A stretch of 64,000 nucleotides of DNA from Kiritimatiellia bacterium (GCA_050949565.1 JBMNFY010000017.1:352001-416000), one strand, 5' to 3'. Counted from the first letter of the stretch, positions 36,038-59,700 are shown. The notes: generated from the sequence alone by a model not told the origin. Numbers and translations: made by a program.

Positions 36038-37780
36038 CTACGGCGTTGCGTCACCTTCGAGGGTGGCGGCGGGGAGCCAGCCGCGGCGGCCTGCGGCGTC
36101 GATGCGCACCCAAGGGCCCGCCTGTTCGAGCGGCACAACCGTACTGCCGGGATTGAGCGTGAAGAGCAACGCGCTTTGCTGCGAAGGCGCAAAGCGCACC
36201 TCCGCGCGTCGTGTGAGGTGGCGCGTGGAGAGCGCTGTCTTGCTATGCAGCCGGTATCCTGTCGCCAGGCTGCCCACTAAAATCAGCAGCCCGACACCCG
36301 CCGCAAGCACTTTGTGCGTCCCGACCAACAGGAAGAACACGAAAAACGCCACCAGCACGCCGCCGCCTGCCACCAGTAGCGGCACGCTGTGACGCAGCGT
36401 CTGATCCACCTGTTCGCGCGTGATGATCTGCGCGTGGGTAACGGAAGTTTTCGGATATGCGGTGTCGATCACACGCACCTCTTCGGTCACGGCCGCGTCT
36501 TGGGTCACGCCGAAGGTCAAGCGGAAAGGCCCTGCCACGCTCTCTTCATACTTTCCGGTCGCGGGATTGAAGAAGCTGAAACGCGTTGCCGCAATCTCGG
36601 TGGCGTTGGTACTCTGCGGAATGAAGACCTGTTCGCTCTTCAGATGTGTCGCTTCGCGCAACAGCTCTTTCGGCGGATAACGCTTGAAGTACGGTGAATC
36701 GGGCGGCGCAGGCATAGCCGCCTGATCGCCGAGCCATCCCTCGCCGCTCAGTTCAAGCGAAAGCGTGATGATGTCGCCGGGCTGCACGGTGTTCTGCGAG
36801 AGTTTTCCTTCGAGGTTGAAGTTGCCGATCGCGCCGGAGAAGTTGTCGGGACGCCCGGCTTCGGGCAACGGCCTCACGCGCAGCGTGAACGGCTCAAGCT
36901 GCTTTTGCTTGGGGAACGACTGCCAATGCGAGAAGAAGCCGGCGGAACGCCGTTCGACCAGCATGCAGTGTACCTGCGGCCTGAAAACACGGTCGATCGG
37001 CTGGTGGCAGCGCGCCTTAGCGATGAAACGGTGCATCGTGAAGGTCTGCGTACCGCGTGTGACGCGGCTGCCTTCGGCGTTCTCAAGCCGTCCGACGGTG
37101 ATCAAATCGGGATTGTTCGGAAAACCGGTGACCCGCACATCCTCCACCTCGCTGCCGAACGTGACCTCAAGTTCAAAGTGAATCTCGAACGCCTGATTCA
37201 CATAGAGCGTCTCGGGCACCGTCTTGAAGCGTCCGCCCAGAATCTCACCCGCATGCACCGGTAGCGCGAGCAGCAGAAGCAGGCTCAACCAGCGGGCAGA
37301 ACAACGCATCGAAAGTTTGATAACGCAGAGACGCAGAGGCGCAGAGGTTTTTACGGGATGGCGTCGTGACCGCAGAAAGTTGAAAGTTGAGCGTTGAAAG
37401 TTGAGCGTTGAAAGTTTTTTTAACGCAGAGACGCGGAGACGCAGAGATCTTTTACGGGGTGGCGGCGTGACCGCCGCTGGGAGGGGCAAGCGTCTGCTTG
37501 CCCGCGGACGAGCAGACGCTCGTCCCTCCCGGTGCTCCGCAATGGAACCTGAAGTCATCCTTCCGCACAGCGGAAGGCGGCTCGTGGGGACACTCGCCCT
37601 CCATTGCTCGTCCCGGCGGCTCGTGGGGACACTCGCCCTCCATTGCTCGTCCCGGCGGCTCGTGAGGACACTCGCCCTCCATTGCTCGCCTCGGCGTCTC
37701 GTGAGGACACTCGCCCTCCAAATCATGTCAATCATGTCAATCATGTCAAAAAAACCTGAAACCAAGGGACGTGTACGCAT
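36038..37780 (-). CDS. BatD-like protein with C-terminal SH3-like domain; first 157 codons are repeat-derived (alternative start 37309)
   Basis: LPEAGRPDNFSGAIG, F.FFNPATGKYE, TM segments, W.RI..GRRGW SH3-like tail. Confidence 0.75.
   Translation of the reverse strand: MRTRPLVSGFFDMIDMIDMIWRASVLTRRRGEQWRASVLTSRRDEQWRASVPTSRRDEQWRASVPTSRLPLCGRMTSGSIAEHREGRASARPRASRRLPLPAAVTPPPRKRSLRLRVSALKKLSTLNFQRSTFNFLRSRRHPVKTSAPLRLCVIKLSMRCSARWLSLLLLLALPVHAGEILGGRFKTVPETLYVNQAFEIHFELEVTFGSEVEDVRVTGFPNNPDLITVGRLENAEGSRVTRGTQTFTMHRFIAKARCHQPIDRVFRPQVHCMLVERRSAGFFSHWQSFPKQKQLEPFTLRVRPLPEAGRPDNFSGAIGNFNLEGKLSQNTVQPGDIITLSLELSGEGWLGDQAAMPAPPDSPYFKRYPPKELLREATHLKSEQVFIPQSTNATEIAATRFSFFNPATGKYEESVAGPFRLTFGVTQDAAVTEEVRVIDTAYPKTSVTHAQIITREQVDQTLRHSVPLLVAGGGVLVAFFVFFLLVGTHKVLAAGVGLLILVGSLATGYRLHSKTALSTRHLTRRAEVRFAPSQQSALLFTLNPGSTVVPLEQAGPWVRIDAAGRRGWLPAATLEGDATP
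37310..37770. repeat. Repeat mosaic including a 39-bp tandem (37576-37720, about 3.7 copies), (ATCATGTCA)x3, heptamers and AACGCAGAGACGC units
   Basis: Directly visible; modules recur at ~22630-22840, ~53375-53430 and ~55200-55350. Confidence 0.9.
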
Positions 37781-40780: not shown

Positions 40781-43346
40781 TTACCAGTCCCTCTCACCCG
40801 GCACCATCGGCATCTTGCGCATGCGCTCTTTCTTTTCCTCTTCGTGCTCTTTTTCACGTTCGAGCGCCTTGCGCAGCAGCTCCTGCACGTCTTGCGGCGG
40901 CTCGGGCTTCTGCTCCTGCGGCTCAGGCTGCTGCTCCTGCTCTTGCTGCTCCTGCTGTTGCTCTTGCTCTTGTTGCTGCTGCTCTTGGTTTTGTTGTTGC
41001 TGATCCTGCTGCTGTTGTTGCTGCTGCTGTGCTGTTGGTTCGGCTGTTTGGGCAGCAGTTCGCGAATCTCCAGCAAATCCTTAAGCGCCTGCTCTTGCAA
41101 CACGCGGCGTTCGGTCTCGGGCGGTTTTTTCTCGACGACTTCGCTTTGAAGTCTCTCGACGTGCTCGGCGATCTTCTCGATCTTGGCTTTGTCCTCAGCG
41201 GTGAAGAGGCGGCATGTTGGTGTCGGTCTGCGCCTGCTGTATGTACTGATCGGCCCACGCAGGGAAGCGTTCACGGAAGAGGCGGGTGAGTTGCAGGGCT
41301 TCGGCCTGTGAGTCGCGCGTTTCCAAATACTTGAGCTTCAAGTTGTGAAGCGCGTTGCTCTGGCAGAGGATGTCTTCGTCGATCGCGGCGTTAGGCGGCG
41401 CGACGGCCTTCCAGAAGTTGTACACGAGTGGCTCGATCTGAGCGGTTTCATTTGCGGCTTCAGGCAGCAGATCCTCAAGCGCCACAGCCGCACCCTTCAT
41501 GCTGTCGCGCGCCAGCTCAATCTGCTGCGCGACCATCGCCTGTTGCTGCGCGTTGGTGACCGCCTGAAGCATCTGTTGCTTGAGCGGAATCCAGAGGTCG
41601 GCTTGCTGTTGCTGACGCTCGGCCAACGCCTCGGCCTTGGCAATCAGCGTCGGGGCGTCATTGGTGTGGAGGGTAGCCGATTCCTCAAGCAACGCGCGCT
41701 GTTCTGCAAGCAGGGTTCCCAGCAGTTGGTCTGGCGGAGTCTGGCCGTGTTTTTCCAGCACCTCCGCAATATGAGCGTTCTCGCGCGCCTCGGCCAGCGG
41801 CGCGACCGCGCGCGTCAGATTGCGGTCACGACGCTCGTCCTGCGGCGTGTCGCGCAACGCACGTTGAAAGGCGACAGCGGCCTCTTCCAATGCTTTAGCC
41901 TTGGCTTGCGGATCTTCTCCCGCACCTTCGGCACTCGCCTGTTCCATCAGAATCAGGCCGAGCAACTCGCCCGCGCGCGCACCGCTCTTGCGCGAGGCGA
42001 GCAACGGGCGCAGGGTCTGCACCGCGTTGGTCATGTCCTGCGCGGTATAATAGGCGTACGCCGCGTTGTAGCGGTACTCCTCGGCCTCTTGCAAGTCTGC
42101 GCCGCGCGCGGCGGAAAGAAAGGCTTCCGCCGCCTCTGTGTGGCGTCCTTTGCGCAATAGTGCCTGGGCTTCGCGCGCACCGGCGCGACCGGGGGCAACC
42201 ACGACCGGCGGACGATTGGTGGCAGAGGACTCGGGGGATGGATCGGACGTTGCATCCGTTTGCGCACGGCCAGCCGAAATGACCAACAAAACAATGATTG
42301 CGGCGGCTGTTGTTGCAGAAGCGGGGGCGGTGCGCGTACGGCTGCCCTTAAACCGTCCGCGACTGAAAGCAAGCGGCGGCCAGCAGGCAGAGCAACGCGG
42401 GAATGAGGAAGAGCTGATAACGCTCCTGATAGCGATTTTCGATCTGCTCTTGCTGATCTTTAGCGGCGATGTGCGGCAGCAGATAACGGCGATAGATCGC
42501 ACCGAGCGTGGTGTGCGCCGTGCCGGCCGTGCCGAGCGGGACGTAGCGGCCACCGGAAGCGTCGGCAATCGCGGTAAGCGTTTCGCTCATCAGGCGCGTC
42601 TTGACGGCACTGCCCTTGAATTGCTGAACCCCCTGCCCACCCTCGCCGGGAATGGTGGCACCGGTTTCATCGCCGATGCCGACCGTGAAAATGGGGATAT
42701 TGCGGCGGGCGGATTCGGCGGCGGCTTCCAACGCATCGCCTTTGAGATCCTCGCCGTCTGAAATGAGCAGGATGGCGTTGTACTCGTCGAACGCAGGATC
42801 GAGCGCCTCCAGCGATTTACGGATGGCATCGCCGAGATTGGTCTCGCCGCGCGGGGCTGACTCCGGCGAGACGCCGTCGAGTGCCTGGCGCAGGAAAGCG
42901 TAATCGGTGGTGAGTGGACAGAGCAAGCTACCTTTACTGCGGAAGGCAAGCAGCGCGGCGCGGTCGCCCTTCAGATCATCGATCAGATCCATGATATCGG
43001 CCTTGGCGCGCTCCAGCCGGTTGGGGTGAACATCGGTAGCGAGCATTGAGCGCGAGACATCAAGCGCGATCATCAGATTTCGGCCGCGCGTGAAGACCTT
43101 CTCATCCTTGCGCCCCCATTGCGGCCGGGCGGCGGCGAACACCAGCAAGGTCAGACCGATCATCACCAGCGAGAACTGCGCATAGAAGGCACTCGTCGAG
43201 TGCGCGGGCACCAGCTTTGGCTGCAACGTCGGCGCGATCAGCATCGCCAGCCGTCGCTGCGCACGCCGGTACAGCCAGAGCCACAACATTCCGATCAGCG
43301 GGACGAGCGAAAGCAGAAGCAGTAAAAATGGATAAACAAAACGCAT
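40781..43346 (-). CDS. batB: BatB/BatC-like fusion (VWA + TPR + Q-rich tail) with three apparent single-base frameshifts (~42367, ~41206, ~41030)
   Basis: DVSRSM, NRLERAK, PLTTD, ISDGED; TPR-like YNAA; C-terminal Q-rich segment ending ...PGERDW* after re-framing. Confidence 0.75.
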
Positions 43347-43370
43347 CGTGGAACAGTTAGGAGTTAGGAG

Positions 43371-43784
43371 TTAGGAGTTAGGAGTTGTGTAAAGGGATTC
43401 GGGGTCGAAGTCTGGGGATTCACACACGGAATTGTCTTTCTCATGAAGGGTCTTGGTTGTGGCCGAGAGAATGCGCACAAGCTCATCACAATCGTTGAAC
43501 AAGGGACCAAAGGTAGCGGTCGGGATGTAATCGGTATCATGCAAAAGACGTAGCCAATACCGGGTCTCCAAGGATTCCTTGAAGGCGATTTGAATCTTCG
43601 CCGCAAAGTCCTTTCTGGAGTATGCGCCGCTGGCCTCTTCGATATTGGCACCAATCGAAGTACCGCAACGCAGGATCTGCTTTGACAAAACGTACTCACT
43701 CCGTTCCTTGCACAGCCACTGGAAGAGCCTGACAATCCGAATGGCGAACGCATAGCTCTTCGTCTTTATCGGCGTGTCTCTCAT
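43371..43784 (-). CDS. Four helix bundle protein (TIGR02436 / 23S rRNA IVP / Avd-like)
   Basis: KSYAFAIRIV, LSKQILRCGTSIGANIEEA, SRKDF..K..IA.KE..ET.YWL.LL; AAGGAG RBS; stop codon supplied by the heptamer array. Confidence 0.92.
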   Translation of the reverse strand: MRDTPIKTKSYAFAIRIVRLFQWLCKERSEYVLSKQILRCGTSIGANIEEASGAYSRKDFAAKIQIAFKESLETRYWLRLLHDTDYIPTATFGPLFNDCDELVRILSATTKTLHEKDNSVCESPDFDPESLYTTPNS

Positions 43785-43828
43785 GTCAACTCCTTGTTCC
43801 TTCTGTTTCCAACTTCTAACTAACTCCT

Positions 43829-43929
43829 AACTCCTTGCCTATAACTTGAGCGTTAAAAGTTGAACGTTGAGCGTTAAAAGTTTTTTAACTCTGAACGCTG
43901 AACGTCGAACGCTGAACGCTGAAGTCGAA
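43829..43929. repeat. ~100-bp heptamer-hairpin element (copy 1 of 3)
   Basis: AACTCCTTGCCTATAACTTGAGCGTTAAAAGTTGAACGTTGAGCG...AACGCTGAACGTCGAACGCTG; also at 53927 and 56135. Confidence 0.9.
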
Positions 43930-43967
43930 AACTCCTAAATCCTAAATCCTAACTCCTAACTCCCCCC

Positions 43968-45005
43968 TCAGAGGAGCCTCCTCGTGAGGCTCATATTGAG
44001 GGTAAGTGCAATAGCCACGAGGGCGGCACCCCAGAGGAGGTAACGGACAAAGTGTTCGTCGAACCGCTGGTAGATTTCGCGGTCGATGCGGGTGGTTTCG
44101 AGAGAGTTGATCTCATCAAGCGCGGCCTCGAGCCCATCGTGATCGCGCACGCTGAAGTAGCGACCGGAGGTTTTGGATGCGATGGACTTAAGTTGCGTCT
44201 CGTCGAAGGTGGCGTTGGCGTAGGCGATGGTCTCGCGACCAAAGAGGTCGCGCGTCTTGAAAGGAGTGCGGGCGTTCGAGCCGACGCCGATGGTGTAGAC
44301 GCGGATACCGAGCTTGGCGGCTGCGTCGGCGGCCTGTTCGGGCGTGATGATGCCGGTGTTCGATTCGCCATCGGAAAGCAGGATGATGATGCGCGTTTCA
44401 GGCTCGGCATCAACCAGACGCGCGACACCCGTGGCGAGTCCGTCGCCGATCGCGGTGAGCGTCTCTTCTTGATCGATCGGCCGTCCTTGGGCATCGGTCT
44501 GCGCACGCGGAATCTCCACGCCCTTCAAGACATGCACAAGCGCACGGTGGTCGGCCGTGAGCGGTGCGCGCGTTGAGGCGTACCCGCCGAAGGTGACCAG
44601 TCCGATCAGATCATCGGGACGCGCTTCGACAAATTTTGCGAATGTCTCTTTCACCACTTCGAGACGTGTCTTCCACTCGTTTTGAGACGGCGAAAGATCC
44701 AACGCCTCCATGGAACCTGAAACGTCGACCACCATGCCGATGGCAATGGCATTGACTGAACGACGCGCGCGGGAAAGCGCGGTGCGTGGACGCGCGGCGG
44801 CAATAATCAACAGTAGCGTACCCACCAAAAAGAGCGGGGGCACAAGCGCAGCGGCGGTGGCGCGCCAACCGGCGGTTCGGGCGGGCAACCGGTGCGTCGC
44901 AGCAAAAAGCACACCTGTGCGCCGTCCGGTACGGTACAGGAACCAGACGGCAGCAGCCCAAGGCAGCAGCAGTAGGAAGGCTAAAGGTGTGGCGAAGGAC
45001 AACAT
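43968..45005 (-). CDS. batA: BatA VWA-domain protein
   Basis: N-terminal BatA TM, AAARP, DVSGSM MIDAS, TAIGDGL, LLSDGESNTG, YTIGVG. Confidence 0.9.
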   Translation of the reverse strand: MLSFATPLAFLLLLPWAAAVWFLYRTGRRTGVLFAATHRLPARTAGWRATAAALVPPLFLVGTLLLIIAAARPRTALSRARRSVNAIAIGMVVDVSGSMEALDLSPSQNEWKTRLEVVKETFAKFVEARPDDLIGLVTFGGYASTRAPLTADHRALVHVLKGVEIPRAQTDAQGRPIDQEETLTAIGDGLATGVARLVDAEPETRIIILLSDGESNTGIITPEQAADAAAKLGIRVYTIGVGSNARTPFKTRDLFGRETIAYANATFDETQLKSIASKTSGRYFSVRDHDGLEAALDEINSLETTRIDREIYQRFDEHFVRYLLWGAALVAIALTLNMSLTRRLL

Positions 45006-45014
45006 GAGTGATTG

Positions 45015-45190
45015 AGGATTTAGGAGTTAGGATTTAGGAGTTAGGATTTAGGAGTTGGAGTTGGGGCTTGGAGACAGAAGTGAGAGTTGGGGTGCGAAAA
45101 AAGAGGCGAGAGGTGAAAAGAGTAAAAGGTGTTGCGTACATGATTCATTCCTTAAAATTCCTAAATCCTAAATCCTAACTTCTAACTCCC
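45015..45190. repeat. Empty type-A cassette: inverted TTAGGAG/TTAGGAT arrays with no four-helix gene
   Basis: GGATTTAGGAGTTAGG... (45015-45064) faces CCTAAATCCTAAATCCTAACTTCTAACTCCC (45160-45190). Confidence 0.85.
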
Positions 45191-46164
45191 TCTTGGGTGC
45201 GCTCTGAGTCCTCACGGATGTAGGTGCGGGCGCGGTCAGTGGCGGCGTCGGTCATCTCGGTCGTGGCCTTTTGGCCGGCGAACTTTACAAGGTCGGCGGA
45301 TTCGAGGAACGTTTTGAGCTTGGCTACAACTTCGGGCGTGAAAGAGGGATGATCGACGGCGACGGCGAGAAATTCCTGTGTGGTCTGCCCGGGGGCGCGG
45401 ATGCCGCGCGTGCGTTCAATGTAACGGCGCACCACCATGGTCAGCTCAATGTAAAACTCTTTGAAGAGCCCGCGGGTCGGCAGGTTGCGTCCCAACAGGC
45501 GTTGCAGTTCGAGCATGGCGCGGTCAGCAGGCGGCATACGGAATTCGCGCACACGCCGGTTGAGCCGGGTGAGGCCGAAGAGTGCGGCCGCGAGCGCGGC
45601 AACTCCGGCCAGCACCGCGACGATCCAGAGCGCGACCGTACGCGCGGTGGGCGGAACGTAAACCGGTTCGGGATTAACCTCCGGATCGCCGGTCACCGGC
45701 GGACGCGCGCCCTCGTCCGGGAAAATCACTGGCCGCGTGGCAAAGGTCGAGGAGTGAGAGGCGTCGGTCACAGTGACCGCGAAGGGTGCCAAGCGGTAAC
45801 GCTTGGCGGCCGGCTCGGGCACCAGCCGCCAGCGGTAGGTTTGACGCTTGCGCCCGTTGGCAGCGACGGGCTGGGCGGCGAAATCCTCAGCCATGCTGAA
45901 TCCGGCGAAGCGGTCGCGCAGATCCGGCAGCGTGACCTCAAGATGCTCCGGCGCCTCGACCGTGACGGTCAGCATGAAATCCCGGGCGGGGGAAACGCGC
46001 TCGGGCGCGGACTCAAGCTTGATCGCGACCTCGCCATGCGAAAGGTCGGCGGTAAAAGCGAAGAGAGAATGAATAGTTAAGAGATAATAACTAATAACTG
46101 CTAAAGCAAGCCATGTGGTTCGTGGCTGGCGTCTAAAAGATCGAAAATGTCGGATCCCAATCAT
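45175..46164 (-). CDS. Bat-operon membrane protein (position of the DUF4381-like gene)
   Basis: Signal/TM segments; FYIELT..VRRYIE, QTTQEFL, ADLVKFA conserved tail. Confidence 0.75.
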   Translation of the reverse strand: MIGIRHFRSFRRQPRTTWLALAVISYYLLTIHSLFAFTADLSHGEVAIKLESAPERVSPARDFMLTVTVEAPEHLEVTLPDLRDRFAGFSMAEDFAAQPVAANGRKRQTYRWRLVPEPAAKRYRLAPFAVTVTDASHSSTFATRPVIFPDEGARPPVTGDPEVNPEPVYVPPTARTVALWIVAVLAGVAALAAALFGLTRLNRRVREFRMPPADRAMLELQRLLGRNLPTRGLFKEFYIELTMVVRRYIERTRGIRAPGQTTQEFLAVAVDHPSFTPEVVAKLKTFLESADLVKFAGQKATTEMTDAATDRARTYIREDSERTQEGVRS

Positions 46165-46206
46165 CGCTATTAGTTATTAGTTATTCATTATTCGTTATTC
46201 ACTATC
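46067..46206. repeat. Empty type-B cassette: inverted AATAACT-type arrays
   Basis: GAATAGTTAAGAGATAATAACTAATAACTG (46071-46100) faces CTATTAGTTATTAGTTATTCATTATTCGTTATTCACTATC (46167-46206). Confidence 0.8.
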
Positions 46207-46208
46207 CC

Positions 46209-47087
46209 CTATCTTTTCCGTGCGCGGCGGCGGAAGAGCGCGCGCACATCATCGATGTACGGGGCATCGGTGGAGAGTCGGATGAAATCAATGCCGGTGC
46301 GCCGCAGAAAACGCAGAAGCTGATCGTTTTCGGTAGCGGCCTGTGTGCGAAACGCCTCGCGCACCATGGCGGATGAGGTGTCGACCAGCAACAACTCGCC
46401 GGTCTCGGGGTCTTGCAACTCAATGAGGCCAACATCCGGCAGCGCGGCTTCGCACGGGTCTGAGATCGGGCAGGCGATGACGTCGTGGCGACGCGCGGTG
46501 ACGCGCAGTTCGCGTTCGTAGCCTGTGTCTTGGAAGTCTGAGACGAGGAACACCACGGCCTTGCGCTTCTGCACGTTGTTGAGGAAGCGCAGCGCAGCGG
46601 TGATGTCGGTGCGTTCACGGGTTTCGTCCGCCGCTAACACTTCACGCACGAGGCGCATGACCGCCGTGCGGCCTTTGCGCGGCGGGATGGATTTGAGGAT
46701 ACGGTCGCTGAACAGGATCAGCCCGATCTTATCCTGATTGCGAATTGCGGTCATGGCCAGCAGGCAGGTAATCTCGGCGGCAAGCTCTGATTTGGAGCGT
46801 GTACCGGAACCGAAAATCTGCGAGCCCGAGACGTCGACCAGAAAAACGACGGTGAGTTCGCGCTCTTCCGAATAGCGCTTCACATGCGGCAGGCCGGTAC
46901 GCGCCGTGACGTTCCAGTCGATCGACCGCACGTCGTCGCCGGGCACGTAGGCACGCACCTCGTCGAACTCGACGCCCTGCCCTTTGAAGACCGAGTGGTA
47001 GTCGCCGGAGAGGCGGTCGTCGATGAGATGCGTCGTGAGGATCTTGATCCTCCCGACCTGCTTCATCAATTCTGTCGTATCAATCAT
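46209..47087 (-). CDS. DUF58 domain protein (MoxR-associated)
   Basis: FKGQGVEFDEVRAYVPGDDVRSIDWNVTAR, EEREL, DVSGS, VSDF. Confidence 0.92.
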   Translation of the reverse strand: MIDTTELMKQVGRIKILTTHLIDDRLSGDYHSVFKGQGVEFDEVRAYVPGDDVRSIDWNVTARTGLPHVKRYSEERELTVVFLVDVSGSQIFGSGTRSKSELAAEITCLLAMTAIRNQDKIGLILFSDRILKSIPPRKGRTAVMRLVREVLAADETRERTDITAALRFLNNVQKRKAVVFLVSDFQDTGYERELRVTARRHDVIACPISDPCEAALPDVGLIELQDPETGELLLVDTSSAMVREAFRTQAATENDQLLRFLRRTGIDFIRLSTDAPYIDDVRALFRRRARKR

Positions 47088-47093
47088 GATAGA

Positions 47094-47609
47094 GTGAATA
47101 ACTAATAACTAATAGTGAATAACTAATAGTGAATAACTAATAGTGAATAACTAATGGTGAATAACTAATGGTGAATAACTAATAACTGTGAGATTACGGA
47201 GAGTTAAGCGGGCGATTGTTTCTTGAGAGTAAGAAGGCTACTGGTCAACAAGCGAAGCATCTCTTCGCAATCTGCGTAAATACCCGAAAAATCGCGGTGT
47301 GCGAGATAGTCGGTTTCATGGAGTAGTTCAAGCCAAAAAGCGGTTTCCGATGCTTCTTTCAAGGCGATCTGGAGCTTCAAAATAAAATCCTTCCTGCTAA
47401 TGGCATATTTAGACTCAGCGATGTTTGCGCCGATACTTGTACCACTGCGCAGAACCTGTTTGGACAAGACGAACTCTCTCTTCTTTTCGGTTAAGAATTG
47501 AAAAAGTCGGACGATTCTAATCGCAAACGCTTTACTTTTTGTCTGAAGTACGCCATCGGTTTTCATGCAAAATCTCTCCCAACTATTAGTTATTCATTAT
47601 TCACTATTC
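47094..47609 (-). mobile_element. Cassette B: four-helix-bundle gene between inverted (AATAGTG AATAACT)n arrays
   Basis: 14-mer tandem 47094-47187 and complementary arm 47581-47609; the cassette fills the moxR-DUF58 junction. Confidence 0.7.
47204..47566 (-). CDS. Four helix bundle protein (TIGR02436 / Avd-like)
   Basis: KSKAFAIRIV, LSKQVLRSGTSIGANIAE, SRKDF, IALKEASET.FWLELL. Confidence 0.92.
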   Translation of the reverse strand: MKTDGVLQTKSKAFAIRIVRLFQFLTEKKREFVLSKQVLRSGTSIGANIAESKYAISRKDFILKLQIALKEASETAFWLELLHETDYLAHRDFSGIYADCEEMLRLLTSSLLTLKKQSPA

Positions 47610-47613
47610 GTTT

Positions 47614-48597
47614 TTAGGGTACGGGGAGGGTGTTCAGGATGTCGGTGATGATTTTGTCGGTGGTGACCTCTTCGGCTTCGGCTTCGTAGGTGAGCATGAT
47701 GCGGTGGCGCAGCACATCGTGGGCGATCTCCTTGACGTCCTGCGGCGTGGCGTAAGCACGACCGTGCATCATCGCGTTGGCGCGCGCGGCCAGATTAAGG
47801 CAGAGCGTCGCGCGCGGCGAAGCGCCCATCTGAATCTGGTGCGTGAGCTTATCGAGTTTATGCGTTGCGGGGTCGCGTGTGGCGAGGACGATGTCGAGGA
47901 TGTAGTCGCCCACCTTTTCGTCGCAGTACACCTGATCGAGCGTGTCACGCAACGTTTGGACATCGGTTGCGGTGACGACAGCCTTGACCGACGCAGACTG
48001 CTTTTGAGTGAAGCGGTTCATGATGCGCCGCTCGTCATCGCGCGACGGGTGCGTGATGATACATTTGAGCATGAAGCGGTCGACCTGAGCCTCGGGCAAC
48101 GGATAGGTACCCTCCTGCTCGATCGGGTTTTGCGTGGCCATAACCAAGAAGGGCGCGGGCAGCGGATAGGTGTTTTCGCCGATCGTGACCTGATGCTCCT
48201 GCATCGCCTCAAGCAGCGCGCTCTGCACCTTGGCCGGGGCGCGGTTGATCTCGTCCGCCAACAGCAGGTTTGTGAAGACCGGCCCCTTCTTGGGCGTGAA
48301 GGTCGCATCCTTGGGGTTGTAGATCATCGTGCCGATCACGTCGGCAGGCAGCAGATCCGGCGTGAAGGAGATGCGCTGGAATTGCAGGCCGAGAGCCTGC
48401 GCCAGCGTTTTGACCGAAAGGGTTTTGGCAAGCCCCGGCACACCCTCAAGGAGGATGTGCCCACCGGTAATCAGAGCGATGAGAAGACGGTCAATCAGCT
48501 TCTCCTGCCCCACGATTACCTTGTTGACTTCTTGGCGGATCGCCGTCAACGTCTCGGCCTGCGCCGCGACTAGGTTAGTGGTTTTTTCTAAGTTCAT
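47614..48597 (-). CDS. moxR: MoxR-family AAA+ ATPase
   Basis: LEGVPGLAKT, FTPDLLPAD, LADEINRAPAKVQSALLEAM, ATQNPIEQEGTYPLPEAQ.DRF, GASPR. Confidence 0.95.
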   Translation of the reverse strand: MNLEKTTNLVAAQAETLTAIRQEVNKVIVGQEKLIDRLLIALITGGHILLEGVPGLAKTLSVKTLAQALGLQFQRISFTPDLLPADVIGTMIYNPKDATFTPKKGPVFTNLLLADEINRAPAKVQSALLEAMQEHQVTIGENTYPLPAPFLVMATQNPIEQEGTYPLPEAQVDRFMLKCIITHPSRDDERRIMNRFTQKQSASVKAVVTATDVQTLRDTLDQVYCDEKVGDYILDIVLATRDPATHKLDKLTHQIQMGASPRATLCLNLAARANAMMHGRAYATPQDVKEIAHDVLRHRIMLTYEAEAEEVTTDKIITDILNTLPVP

Positions 48598-48598
48598 T

Positions 48599-49771
48599 TT
48601 AATTAACTTGGGGCGCGGGCTTTGCCCCCGCATCGGGTTCTGCTTTAGGTTTCTCTTCTTTCTTAGGCGCTTCTTCTTTCTTCACCTCGGCCTTGGGCGC
48701 CTCCTCGTCCTTCGCCTCGTCCTTCGCCTCGTCCTTGGGCTCCTCCTTAGGTTTGACGAAATCGGCGCGGCTCTTGGTCATGTTCTCCGCGTTGTAGGAG
48801 GAGATCGCGTAGGCCCACTTGCCGGACTTGGCGTTGAAGTCGTCCACCTTCTTGGTGAGTGCGGCGTTTTCGGTCTCGTTCGTGCCGACCGGCGTGAAGG
48901 CGGCGTTCAGGCGGATGTAACGGTCGGTGCCGCCTTCAGCGACACCGCCGATCTTGGCGGTGTAGCGTTCGCCGTTCTTGAGGGCGACGGTAAAGACCGC
49001 GCCGGTGGTCAGGCCGAGTTGCTCGTCGGTGAGGGCGGGATCGACAACGGCGTTGAAATTCAGATAGCTGAGCGCCGACTCGACGCTGTAGGTCTTGGAT
49101 GTATCGAGTTCTTCCTTGTCGCCGAGGCCTTCCAGTGTCCAGGTGCCGTCCTTTTTGGCGAGCTTGACGGTTTTGCCATCGCGCGTCATTTCGGCGGCCG
49201 TCACGTCGGCCGAAGGCACCGAGGCAATCCGCGTATCGGTCCAGCTTTTGACATCGCCGTCAAAGGCATCGAGCGAATCCTTGACAAGCACCACGGTGTC
49301 GCTGCCGTCAGCCGCGACATAGCGCCCGTCCGGATAACCGCCGCCGCCGAACTGCGCCATTTCGCCTGTGGGCTGGCGCATGTGCTTGTCGCCGAGGCGT
49401 AGCGTAGCGAGCGATTTGCCGTCGGCGTTCTGCAGGTCGATCAAAATGGGGTCGTCCAGTTTCTTGCCGGAGGCCACATGGCCGGCCTTGAGATCGACGA
49501 GCTTGAGCAGGTTTTCCCGGATCTTGGTGATGTCGGCGGGATAGCCGTACAGCGATTCGATCACCCAGCCCGCATCGGTACTGGCGAGCACCAGCTTCTT
49601 GGCGGCGGGGCCGGCCTCGATCCGCGCGACCGCGCTGATGTCGAATTTCTTAACTACGGGCTTGCCGACAATCGAGGGGGCTTTCATTTTCCTGCTAGAG
49701 CTGCTGAGGTAGGCGAGCGCGACCAGTACGGCCGCAACAGCGGTAAGTATGATCAGTTTCTTGTTGGTCAT
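48599..49771 (-). CDS. DUF4340-like protein
   Basis: N-terminal TM, GYPAD, follows the GldG-like gene; charged low-complexity tail. Confidence 0.72.
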   Translation of the reverse strand: MTNKKLIILTAVAAVLVALAYLSSSSRKMKAPSIVGKPVVKKFDISAVARIEAGPAAKKLVLASTDAGWVIESLYGYPADITKIRENLLKLVDLKAGHVASGKKLDDPILIDLQNADGKSLATLRLGDKHMRQPTGEMAQFGGGGYPDGRYVAADGSDTVVLVKDSLDAFDGDVKSWTDTRIASVPSADVTAAEMTRDGKTVKLAKKDGTWTLEGLGDKEELDTSKTYSVESALSYLNFNAVVDPALTDEQLGLTTGAVFTVALKNGERYTAKIGGVAEGGTDRYIRLNAAFTPVGTNETENAALTKKVDDFNAKSGKWAYAISSYNAENMTKSRADFVKPKEEPKDEAKDEAKDEEAPKAEVKKEEAPKKEEKPKAEPDAGAKPAPQVN

Positions 49772-56134: not shown

Positions 56135-56632
56135 AACTCCTTGCCCATAACTTGAGCGTTAAAAGTTGAACGTTGAGCGTTAAACGTTTTTAACTCAGAA
56201 CGCTGAACGTCGAACGCTGAACTCAGGTACAAAGGGATCGGTATTGACTCGCGACCCGCGACGTGCGACTTGCAGCCAACCCTGCCCCCAAAAATCTGCG
56301 TTAAAAATCTAAACCACGAACCACACGAACAACACGAAAGCAGTGCTGTGCCTTTTCGTGTATTCCGTGTATTTCGTGGTTAAACAAACCCGAGCAATGC
56401 CCCTCCAAAATCTGCGTCATCTGTGTAATCTGTGGATAGAAAAAACCGAGCCATGCCCTTCCAAAAACCTTGGCGTTCTTGGCGCCTTGGCGGTTCCAAA
56501 AACCCGAGCAATGCCCCTCCAAAATCTGCGTCATCTGTGTAATCTGTGGATAGAAAACCAAGCAACGCCCCTCAAAAAACCTTCGTGCCCTTCGTGTCTC
56601 CGTGGTTAAAACAACCGAGCCCTGCCCCTGTC
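56135..56632. repeat. ~100-bp element (copy 3) followed by a ~57-bp-period linker/unit array
   Basis: Linker CCGAGCAATGCCCCTCCAAAA variants at 56390, 56446, 56504, 56558 and 56615 (degenerate copy at 56276). Confidence 0.9.
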
Positions 56633-56742: not shown

Positions 56743-59700
56743 ATGAACATTAAAACACGCATCCTTCCCGCACTACTCCTTGCCGCCGTGCTGTTACCCT
56801 TCTCAGTGTACGCCTACACCTACGGTGATTACACCTACACCGTCTATGACGGCAAAGCCACCATCACCGACTTTAATTCATCCTACTCCGGATCCTTGAC
56901 CATTCCCTCCACCCTCGGCGGCTATCCCGTCACATCCATCAGCTACAGAGCCTTCTACAACTGCTATCGCCTCACCTCCGTCACCATCCCTGACAGCGCC
57001 ACAAGAATCGGCGACGAAGCCTTCTCATCCTGCACCTCCCTCACAGCGATCAACGTATCGAAAAACAACCCGGCCTACACAAGTACCAACGGCGTCCTCT
57101 TCAACAAAAACTTGACCACTCTGATCCAGTGCCCCGGTGGCTTCTCTGGATCCTACACCATCCCCGACAGCGTCACATCCATCGGCGACAGCGCCTTCCG
57201 CTCCTGCGACATCCCTCACGGCAATCAACGTATCGGAAAACAATCCGGCCTACACAAGTGCCAACGGTATCCTTTTCAACAAAAGCTTGACCGCTCTAAT
57301 CCAGTGCCCCGGTAGCTTCTCCGGATCCTACACCATTCCAGACAGCGTCACATCCATCGGCGACAGCGCCTTCTACGACTGCACCAAACTCACCTCCGTC
57401 AACATCCCTGACAGCGTCAAAAGCGTCGGCGACTGGGCCTTCGGCTGGTGCGCGTCCCTCGCCTCCGTCACCATCGGGAACAGCGTCACCGACATCGGCG
57501 GCTACGCCTTCTGCTACTGCTCCTCCCTCGCCTCCGTCGTCATCGGAAACAACGTCATCGCCATCGGCGACAGAGCCTTCTACAACTGCGACTCCCTCAC
57601 CTCCGTCAACATTCCCGACAGCGTAACAAACATCGGCGGCTGGGCCTTCGGGAACTGCTATCGCCTCACCTCCGTCACCATCCCTGACAGCGTAACAACC
57701 ATCGGCTACTGGGCCTTCCGCTCATGCACCAACATCACCTCCGTCACCATCGGAAACAGCGTCACAAACATCGGCGACTACGCCTTCGGAGACTGCTCCG
57801 CTTTGCAGTGCGCATATTTTAAAGGCAATGCTCCCTCTAGAGGTTACGATGTTTTTTTAAGATCCACTCAAACGACCGTCTACCGGCTACCTTATGCCAT
57901 AGGCTGGCCGACTGTGCCCAACTCTTGGTGTGGTCGACCGACTGCGTATTGGACTTGGCCGGTTACTGTGATGTTTGACCCGCTGGGGGGAGCAGTAGAT
58001 CCGTCAAACGCAACCATGAGCTACGGTTTCGCCTACGGTGTCTTGCCTGTACCGATGCTGGCCGGACATTTCTTCGGGGGCTGGTGGACCGAAGCCGGCG
58101 GCACGGGAACGCAGGTGACAGACACGACTTTAGTGACAACAGCGTCAGACCACACCCTCTATGCCAAATGGATCAACCCATACGCTGTCGGGAACGGCGA
58201 AAACGCCGTGCCGGTCGGCAAGGTCACGGCGGCTTGTCCATCCAGCTTGGCGGGGTCGGTTTGTTGGACGACGGCGACATGGCGGGGCTCGAATGGAGCG
58301 TGACCGGACGGGGCGTGCTGTCCTTTGACTGGAAGGTGTCGAGCGAGGCGGATTGGGATGTGCTGCGGTTCTACGAGGTCGGAACCGGAGAAACGAATGT
58401 GATCTCCGGCACGGGCGCGGAGTGGACGCGGATCACGCGGGTCGTGGAAGCGGACTCGCCGCACACGTTCCGCTGGGAATATGAGAAAGATCCGCATGGC
58501 GACTATGTCGGTGATGACTGCGGCTGGATCGATGCGTTCGACTGGGCGCCTTTCTTTGATCTGACCGTTAACGGCGGCACGGGCGGCGGCACTTACACCA
58601 ACGGCACAATCGTGACCGTCTCGGCGGACACACCCCCCGCTCACTACCTGTTTGATGTGTGGACAGGAGACACCGGCGCCGTAGCGAACGTACACGCGGC
58701 GACCACCACCCTGACCATGCCGGCGACGAACGCCGTGATAACGGCGACGTACAAGCCGATCCTCTATCCGGTCGAAGTCGTTGGCGGCCAGGGCAGCGGC
58801 GGCTACGCCTACGGCTCCACGGTGACGCTGAGCGCGGATATACCGGAAGGCAAGCGCTTCTACCGCTGGGCGGGCGACACGGCAAACATTGCCGACCTCA
58901 ACGCGCCGACGACCACGGTGTATTTCGCAGGTGAGTCGCTGGCGGTGACCTCGACCTATTGCGTACCGCTGACCGTGACGCAGGGCACGGGCAGCGGATG
59001 GTACCCCGAGGGAGCGACCGCCGTTGTGAAGGCCGACCCCAATCCGATGTGGATGGAGTTCGCAGGATGGATCGGCGACGGCGCAGGCCAAGTGGAAAAC
59101 GTCTTTCTGGCGGACACGACAATGGTGATCCCGACGCGGCCTTCCGCATTGACCGCCACCTACACCGACTCGGTGGCGCGCGTGGCGGGCTGTTACGGGC
59201 GCGCGTTCACGCGCTCGGGCGTGGAAGGCGGCATTTCGACGGACTTTGCGGCAGGCTCTCCCTCCGGCACGCCAGCAGTCAAGCTGGGCGGGGCGGGTGT
59301 GGTTCCGGACAACGGGTTTGCGGCCTTTGAAACCTCGGTTTTCGGCAGCGGAACCGTCACGTTCTGGTGGCGGGTTTCGAGCGAACGCGATGCCGACTAC
59401 TTGAAGTTTCTCGTGGACGGCACGCAGGTCGCCGCCCTTTCTGGAACGAAAGGTCCATGGACGCAGGTTTCGCAACGGATCGAGGGCGCGGGCGCATCCC
59501 ATGTTTTGCGCTGGGAATACGCGAAAAACGATTCCTTCGCCAGCAGTACCGATGCGGGCTGGGTGGACGACATCGTTTGGACGGGAGACATTCCCGAACC
59601 GGTGCTCTCGCCCGACATTCAAGAGACGGCCTTCACCAACGGGGTGTTCGGCATCCGTTTCCTGGGCGAACGCGGCATTCCCTACGCGGTCTACAGCAAC

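Follow-up and report, generated by a model that had tools for sequence, protein, structure and literature searches.

Whether two related genes can each be matched to a repeat sequence of their own is the question raised by a 64,000-nucleotide stretch of DNA from a Kiritimatiellia bacterium (GCA_050949565.1 JBMNFY010000017.1:352001-416000; the whole of this stretch is hereafter the window). Two genes for small four-helix-bundle proteins, paralogs A and B, lie there in one operon, each bracketed by arrays of short tandem repeats, and the repeats around paralog B (cassette B, 47093-47609, 517 nt) differ from those around paralog A (cassette A). The initial annotation had read this as a protein-repeat specificity code with a fixed 7-nt register, in which each paralog has a cognate heptamer. 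We favor a different reading, to which we assign a probability of roughly 0.6: cassette B is an inserted, heritable hairpin cassette that belongs to a widespread class, has no promoter-like site of its own, and resembles the intervening sequences (IVS) of 23S rRNA. Judging from the sequences compared, its private repeat appears to be better explained by shared descent of gene and arms than by a protein-DNA code.

Cassette B and the genes around it are on the minus strand, in a standard moxR-DUF58-batA-batB operon. The upstream gene, moxR (47614-48633; AAA_3 ATPase, Pfam AAA_3 E 2.2e-65), ends with a TAA codon at 47614-47616, and a spacer of 4 nt separates this codon from the 5′ arm, which comprises 29 nt (47581-47609) and about four heptamers of the GAATAGT/GAATAAT/GAATAAC type, as delimited by the sequence, by inverted repeats and by a Tandem Repeats Finder (TRF) row at 47590-47609. 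A leader of 14 nt (47567-47580) separates this arm from the ATG, at 47566, of paralog B, a 120-aa protein of the PF05635/TIGR02436 family whose open reading frame (ORF; 47204-47566) was assigned by family searches and a match in the PDB. The stop of this ORF ends at 47204, and after a gap of 16 nt the 3′ arm follows (47093-47187; TRF and repeat search), a 94-nt array of alternating AATAGTG and AATAACT heptamers that TRF reports as a 14-nt unit, i.e., two alternating heptamers, repeated 5.8 times with 97% matches (47104-47184). The array stops 5-6 nt short of the ATG (47085-47087) of the downstream gene, DUF58 (46209-47087; Pfam DUF58 E 7.1e-76). The initial description of this arrangement, from the moxR stop through the 4-nt gap, the repeat, the 120-aa paralog and the complementary array of about 94 nt to the DUF58 ATG, is correct in every detail. 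The two arms are inverted repeats of each other (24 nt at 92% and 36 nt at 81% complementarity), and their stem reaches into the leader, which one of the inverted repeats includes; the leader also contains the word GGGAGAG, the complement of which, CTCTCC, is found directly past the ORF stop. GC content falls to 0.365-0.455 within 47000-47699, compared to about 0.6 on either flank. Simple scans of 46900-47800 revealed no promoter-like or terminator-like site, and no Rfam family matched within 42000-49000 at E ≤1.

Cassette A, also on the minus strand, is located between batA and batB. It consists of an AGTTAGG-type 5′ arm (43811-43835; TRF and inverted repeats), paralog A (43371-43784; 137 aa, PF05635/TIGR02436 by Pfam and NCBIfam) and a 3′ arm (43355-43386; TRF and inverted repeats) that reads as (AGTTAGG)x4.6 on the plus strand and into which the C-terminal tail of paralog A is translated. 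The two proteins are 55-56% identical, and the proposal that cassette B repeats the layout of cassette A with a different unit, AATAGTG/AATAACT rather than the AGTTAGG type, is borne out. We scored the complementarity of inverted flanks and obtained 17 for cassette B (shuffle maximum 9.5) and 27 for cassette A (shuffle maximum 11). One may postulate that such a pattern arose by chance or from faulty assembly of low-complexity DNA, given that this is a metagenome-assembled genome and that the long array is a frequent break point in contigs from relatives and from RNA libraries. This explanation is hardly credible, however; the arm scores are far beyond those of shuffles, a cassette with a 99% identical protein was assembled independently in a relative, and contigs from several public runs, produced in different studies, also contain cassette B.

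The same layout recurs throughout this genome (4.66 Mb in 21 contigs, GC 0.60). Nine PF05635 genes are present, and all nine lie, as judged by eye, between inverted tandem arrays, each with a G-rich array upstream and its complement downstream; the arm unit differs among the loci and is 7-8 nt or composite. A flank score of at least 13 was obtained for eight of the nine genes, compared to 103 of 3061 other crude gene calls and 19 of 599 among genes shorter than 200 aa. Neighboring genes were co-oriented with the cassette gene in 29 of 30 cases. None of the nine genes lies inside either of the two 23S rRNA genes (C17:1170522-1173427 and 1727677-1730582), both of which match the full model uninterrupted. 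An unrelated family, GxxExxY (TIGR04256), which we first met in the loops of other inverted arrays, shows the same layout, again as judged by eye, at six of six loci in the genome, with units of 8-9 nt. Another loop between arrays of the ACGCAGAG type, at C21:31673-32286, holds an ORF whose C-terminal half looks HigB/RelE-like by eye, although NCBIfam gave no match. Six further proteins of 287-342 aa match PF05635 weakly (C17:1312084, C17:1369236, C10:181688, C4:48752, C8:395223 and C1:105071) and seem to constitute a longer, fused branch of this family; the one that was scanned, C17:1312084, carries a TIGR04258 "four helix bundle suffix" domain and a cysteine-rich C-terminal end that appears zinc-ribbon-like by eye only.

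We then assembled a wider sample of PF05635 loci, which comprised 80 loci from matches in 31 related genomes, the 9 loci of this genome, 4 additional loci, and 13 others from Planctomycetota and Bacteroidota that had been found with paralog B, for a total of 107 genes, of which 106 were scored. The 80 loci were near-full-length matches without internal stops and away from contig starts, the rest being omitted; Clostridia loci were left out of the sample because most of them lack arms. Requiring an inverted-flank score of at least 13 and above all 30 shuffles, we found inverted arms in 83 of the 106 genes. The median score was 20.5, compared to 8.1 for shuffles and 8.5 for the direct orientation, in which 18 genes also reached 13. 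These arms have a fixed polarity, with the G-rich arm 5′ of the gene: G exceeds C in the 5′ arm of 74 cassettes and C exceeds G in 8, and the pooled composition is A 0.32, G 0.325, T 0.227 and C 0.127. The postulated 7-nt register is not fixed, since the period of the 83 cassettes is 7 in 35 and 8 in 14, as well as 6 in 2, 9 in 1, 12 in 1, and mixed or unclear in 30. Shine-Dalgarno-like words were found in 27 of the 83 5′ arms and 5 of the 83 3′ arms, which is a tendency only. We also considered 5′ arms as devices that stop translation in all three frames and rejected this idea; only 30 of 83 close all frames, where shuffles would lead one to expect about 14, and in 21 of 83 no frame is closed. 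In Prevotella-type genomes, a cassette within AAGAAAAT-type arms sits just upstream of an ORF that we read by eye as gcvH.

The cassette proteins are products of working genes. Protein B matches PF05635 with E 9.9e-26 (90.5 bits; cut-off 33.8) and TIGR02436 with E 3.1e-30 (104.6 bits; cut-off 24), and protein A reaches 97.6 bits with Pfam and 103.8 bits with NCBIfam. Residues 4-115 of protein B match PDB chain 2rld_A (E 4.1e-33), a relative with a solved four-helix-bundle structure, and a profile of the cassette proteins also matches 2gsc_A (XCC0516; E 5.7e-29). No PADLOC defence system matched protein A or protein B. For 12 of 13 gene pairs dN/dS is 0.036-0.129, with synonymous divergence (dS) of up to 1.7, the lowest value being that of protein B and its ortholog in G004 (0.036); the thirteenth pair has no synonymous and six non-synonymous differences. 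Such strong purifying selection indicates genes that work, whether they serve the cell or the element, rather than debris. The arms are constrained as well, given that they remain partly or largely alike at dS of 0.65-1.2 (shared fraction 0.54 for the pair L128/L130 and 0.72 for L039/L044); pairing itself slows their divergence, since a substitution in one arm has to be matched by another in its partner.

Gene and arms are inherited together. The initial annotation had suggested that co-phylogeny of protein and repeat be examined, and the outcome is positive at shallow to moderate depth. When pairs of genes were binned by protein identity, the proportion sharing at least 30% of their arm 7-mers was 23 of 25 at 90% or above, 15 of 20 at 80-90%, 4 of 6 at 70-80%, 4 of 31 at 60-70%, and 5 of 3321 below 60%. 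A second measure considered only pairs from different genomes and counted a match where at least three repeated flank 8-mers were common to both; array sets were shuffled within genomes 300 times as a control, which removes any genome-wide fashion in arrays. At identities of at least 75%, 49 of 53 pairs matched (shuffle mean 16.1), and at 65-75%, 17 of 28 matched (shuffle mean 1.0); in neither bin did any of the 300 shuffles reach the observed value. At 55-65%, only 2 of 71 pairs matched, below the shuffle mean of 6.5. Repeat type therefore follows protein clade until identity drops to about 65%, and this tracking is accounted for by gene and arms having been inherited as one.

A more demanding explanation of the same pattern is cognate recognition, in which a homopentameric ring protein would bind the units repeated in its own arms, with about one unit for each subunit, in the manner of the trp RNA-binding attenuation protein (TRAP) on triplet repeats, and each clade reads its own heptamer for autoregulation, for protection from RNase, or for targeting of the cassette to matching arrays. 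Several observations are in its favor. The unit tracks the protein clade beyond what within-genome shuffles produce, units are unchanged at dS of about 1, and units look as if composed of a conserved core and 2-3 variable nucleotides, which is typical of repeated binding sites. Both solved relatives, 2rld and 2gsc, have five chains per entry, and the Xanthomonas relative is described as a toroidal homopentamer (PMC4990558). The four nearest relatives of protein B outside its genus (61, 61, 59 and 57% identical, from three genomes of other families) all adjoin AATAG-type heptamers even though their geometry differs, the hairpin being entirely upstream of the gene; this likeness was defined post hoc, however, and such units are common in two of the genomes (7 and 14 matches). 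Near a Flammeovirga gene whose product is 57-59% identical to protein B there are AACTAAT units together with AGTTAGC arms.

Other results argue against a code, and we consider cognate recognition rather unlikely. Co-inheritance combined with constraint on the stem predicts the same tracking; the match count at 55-65% identity falls below that of the shuffles; the period of the repeats varies; and the invariant residues in an alignment of 31 cassette proteins, Q37, E51 and E74 in the numbering of protein B (S44 being nearly so), include no basic residue. This acidic signature, which resembles that of an enzyme or a metal site, is unexpected for a plain nucleic-acid binder. The same units are also common where no such gene was found. 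In a search for B-type words that allowed up to three mismatches to a 21-mer, for which the reversed-pattern control gave 0-1 matches per genome, such words occurred in 11 of 31 genomes and a protein at least 99% identical to B in 2. A-type words occurred in 14 genomes, in 6 of which A-clade proteins (at least 67% identical) were found. The genome studied here (G000) has 161 A-type and 18 B-type matches but a single gene of each type, and G014, which is 92% complete, has 19 A-type and 6 B-type matches and no A- or B-clade protein at E ≤1e-25. G005, G002 and others likewise contain array words and no A- or B-clade protein that we could find; array-only genomes other than G014 are 56-88% complete, such that the absence of the gene from them is unproven. 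The unrelated GxxExxY genes share the layout, and in one congener (G001) both arms of the orthologous cassette A have changed to AGGAGGG/CCTCCCT-type tracts. Of the proposed cognate heptamer for each paralog, then, lineage-specific arms are borne out and the protein-repeat code is not supported. The stricter version, with one unit per subunit and the clade heptamer serving as an address, strikes us as very doubtful; if it were true, matching arrays without a gene would be landing pads or a regulon of the cassette, and the system would be a natural, evolvable code of protein-repeat recognition with a 7-8 nt step.

The orthologous moxR-DUF58 junction shows how such units come and go. Orthologs of moxR were found in 31 of 31 genomes searched (this one included), and after removal of five contig ends and one paralogous operon from 30 loci, the junction could be read in 24 related genomes. 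Cassette B is present in 2 of the 24, namely this genome and its closest relative, L002, in which the junction is 41 nt shorter and the downstream array has fewer units. Two congeners instead carry a GxxExxY cassette with CACAGATG-type arms, in one case internally deleted, and one genome of another genus carries a different PF05635 cassette with GAAGTAA-type arms. A PF05635 remnant of 295 nt is left at one junction, hairpins of tandem units without a gene occupy three, and one (L016, in G022) holds another kind of insert, 536 nt long, with small ORFs of its own and short GTGTTC/GAACAC ends; the remaining 14 are spacers of 0-68 nt with no array. Other junctions of the operon follow suit, and cassette A is retained between batA and batB in two congeners. 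Gain, replacement, erosion and loss of this kind are the pattern left by an inserted element. Gene and arms also travel as a whole: the pairs L162/L170 and OWN_C20/L122 are 87-89% identical and have the same arms within unrelated flanks, and G009 has three copies, 93-96% identical, on three contigs.

Arrays are much more numerous than cassette genes, which suggests a further alternative, namely that the arrays are a general intercistronic device of this lineage, with a role in mRNA processing, insulation between cistrons or translation start, and that the gene is a passenger that lands or survives in their loops. TRF reported 4481 rows genome-wide, with peaks at periods 7 (902), 8 (690) and 9 (1075); merged arrays of period 7/8 number 1604, and 67-69% of the period-7/8 rows fall outside crude genes, which make up 87% of the DNA. 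Among the heptamers of the genome, the A-type unit is the most frequent (125 + 75 rows). Words of 12 nt common to both arms recur in 64 other 400-nt bins for cassette A, in 15 for cassette B, and in 127-204 for three GxxExxY cassettes; the remaining B-type sites, none of them close to a PF05635 gene, are short arrays at the borders of genes. In spacers between co-oriented genes (period 7/8, crude gene calls), G-rich arrays lie in the first half in 229 cases and in the second half in 98, whereas C-rich arrays lie in the second half in 148 cases and in the first in 109. This G-rich-early, C-rich-late order holds with or without a cassette gene and is a genome-wide grammar independent of such genes. 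In addition, C-rich CTCCTAA arrays immediately ahead of the start of batA are conserved in several genera, and intergenic heptamers for which a translational role has been proposed are reported from Beggiatoaceae, Cyanobacteria and Bacteroidetes (PMC4679880). In L112 (G001), CTCCTAA/TTCCTCA heptamers form part of the coding region of the gene that follows batB, as though a low-complexity linker had absorbed an array.

A host device of this kind is nonetheless quite unlikely to account for the cassettes. At the moxR-DUF58 junction the arms switch with the gene, B arms accompanying B and CACAGATG-type arms accompanying GxxExxY, and the copies of one gene at unrelated sites keep the same arms. 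The 14 of 24 relatives without an array at this junction indicate that arrays are not a fixed host feature of the spacer, and the deleted or degraded cassettes (L004 and L011) show that at least some bare hairpins are the remains of cassettes.

How would an inserted cassette be tolerated in a housekeeping operon? In the transcript of the operon the arms would pair into a stem of about 30-40 bp with the ORF looped out; indeed, the minimum-energy fold of a 541-nt RNA places the two arms in the outermost stem (-135.9 kcal/mol, z -2.76). Contigs from three RNA libraries of different studies also span moxR and the cassette gene. Such a stem would be a target for double-strand RNases, and a gene for RNase III is encoded in the genome; a cut by this enzyme would release the cassette RNA, so that the cassette is probably excised from the polycistronic RNA and the neighboring cistrons stay usable. 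Excision that does no harm would allow a semi-selfish unit to persist in housekeeping operons. The heptamers of A and B would then differ because these are two separate cassette lineages, each of which has dragged along its own arms, and selection on the stem would have kept the arms of each lineage.

A number of results weigh against this reading and must be set beside it. Filled and empty junctions show no direct repeat of host flank that would represent a target-site duplication, and no transposase or other mobility machinery was seen in or beside the cassettes, trans-acting enzymes not having been searched for genome-wide. The 1604 arrays so outnumber the 15 cassette genes of the genome that arrays must also spread or persist alone. 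Mismatches in the 83 arm pairs are 90 of the G-U type and 96 of the A-C type, and this lack of a G-U bias means that selection on an RNA stem rather than a DNA hairpin is not demonstrated. Units that are unchanged at saturated synonymous divergence may exceed what pairing demands, leaving room for sequence-specific reading. Among Clostridia relatives of protein B, only 2 of 65 scored loci have a flank z of at least 5, compared to 14 of 14 loci from Kiritimatiellia, Planctomycetota and Bacteroidota in the same comparison; the armed layout does not characterize the protein family as a whole. Finally, carry-over of DNA into the RNA libraries is possible, and the public RNA data, being contigs only, give no molecule ends, strand or level. 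Where RNA contigs break (47037-47140), the position matches that of the long array, which makes assembly the probable cause, and two joints between A-type arrays in one RNA run were read as repeat-mediated mis-joins or as other loci.

The closest known counterparts of an inserted hairpin cassette are the ORF-bearing IVS of 23S rRNA. That of Coxiella burnetii is described as 428-444 nt long, with a 28-bp terminal stem, an S23p ORF, cleavage by RNase III and a GC content below that of the genome, and ORF-bearing IVS are cited also for Leptospira, Xanthomonas and Brucella (PMC4990558). Cassette B (517 nt) resembles these in its protein family, S23p/PF05635, in its similar size, in having an ORF within terminal inverted repeats that form a long stem, in its low GC content, and in its sporadic occurrence among relatives. 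It differs in lying between protein genes of an operon rather than in 23S rRNA, and in having arms of variable-copy 7-nt tandem units instead of the unique 28-bp stem described for the IVS; furthermore, RNase III cutting, reported for the Coxiella IVS, is for cassette B a proposal by analogy. As it lies outside rRNA, we refer to it as IVS-like and not as an IVS. GxxExxY cassettes are similar in their arm-gene-arm order, in being co-oriented within operons, and in occupying the same moxR-DUF58 junction in two congeners, whereas their protein is unrelated and not a four-helix bundle, and their arms mostly consist of three 8-9-nt units.

Cyanobacteria also contain short tandemly repeated repetitive (STRR) heptamers, which are comparable intergenic repeats. 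Direct repeats of the intergenic heptamer TAACTGA have been reported from Beggiatoaceae, Cyanobacteria and Bacteroidetes (PMC4679880). Like both of these, the arrays described here consist of tandem 7-nt units that are mostly intergenic, lie near start codons, are oriented to the downstream gene, and are patchy across phyla; unlike the TAACTGA repeats as reported there, they include a wide variety of units within a genome and form inverted pairs that bracket genes, and the unit sequences seen here differ from TAACTGA. The main text of that report contains neither "intervening sequence" nor "four helix" and does not link its repeats to such genes. Terminal inverted repeats, many gene-less copies and the decay of gene-bearing copies to bare hairpins also recall miniature inverted-repeat transposable elements (MITEs) and the hairpin-forming doublets of repetitive extragenic palindromes (REPINs). 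Unlike these, however, the cassettes show no target-site duplication, have arms that are tandem arrays of a sequence that varies between cassettes, and have no transposase or REP-associated tyrosine transposase (RAYT) in or beside them, the genome not having been searched for one. A last candidate was Avd, the accessory protein of diversity-generating retroelements (DGRs), which is a small pentameric four-helix-bundle protein linked to PF05635. We rejected it; the sole RVT_1 match of the genome (C8:45678-45992) is separated by 16 kb from the PF05635 gene closest to it and lies neither in the window nor on the contig of cassette B, and a profile of the 31 cassette proteins reaches no Avd chain at E ≤0.01.

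Several other repeat modules accompany the two cassettes in the window. The batA-batB spacer contains, adjoining cassette A, a separate hairpin of TTGAACG/GCTGAACG units (43846-43963) and then a second A-type array (TCCTAAA x4.4), so that, apart from the gene, two or more repeat modules are nested in one another or adjoin within this spacer. A gene-less hairpin of A-type units (GATTTAG/GGAGTTA against TCCTAAA; 45010-45189, minus strand; TRF and repeat search) with a loop of about 100 nt lies between a 329-aa ORF (45175-46164) and batA, at a junction that is occupied by a full PF05635 cassette in G006 and G003. Its loop (45057-45158) opens with a conserved stretch, ATG-YAC/CAC-...-ACACCTTT, that is common to two other genomes (L112 and L113) and represents old spacer sequence or else a small leader ORF. 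Directly past the DUF58 stop there is a gene-less array of B-type heptamers (46166-46205, minus strand; TRF and sequence), the partner words of which, two B-type units, lie at 46085-46099, within the first 30 codons of the 329-aa ORF and in a hydrophobic N-terminal stretch. Homologues of this ORF in relatives align from residues 5-36 onward, and the arm words may be coding or the true start may lie further in. When aligned to the window, contigs of public RNA libraries show 7-nt indels, exactly one unit, at 46168 and 46188, which represent polymorphism of unit number in natural populations. Additional tandem repeats were reported by TRF at 37576-37720, 56386-56578 and 56982-57799, with a 39-nt unit x3.7, a 58-nt unit x3.4, and coding-looking repeats of 69/138/175 nt, respectively.

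We found no description of PF05635 cassettes with tandem-unit arms outside rRNA in the literature, supplements excluded. What is new here is the quantified answer on co-phylogeny, the series of replacements at a single junction, and the polarity of the arms with respect to strand. For annotators, such arrays flag inserted DNA and break assemblies. More broadly, three oddities, namely the S23p ORFs of rRNA IVS, the TIGR02436 and GxxExxY mini-proteins, and the excess of 7-8 nt repeats between genes, become parts of one object, a hairpin-armed cassette inside operons, the function of which is thereby made testable.

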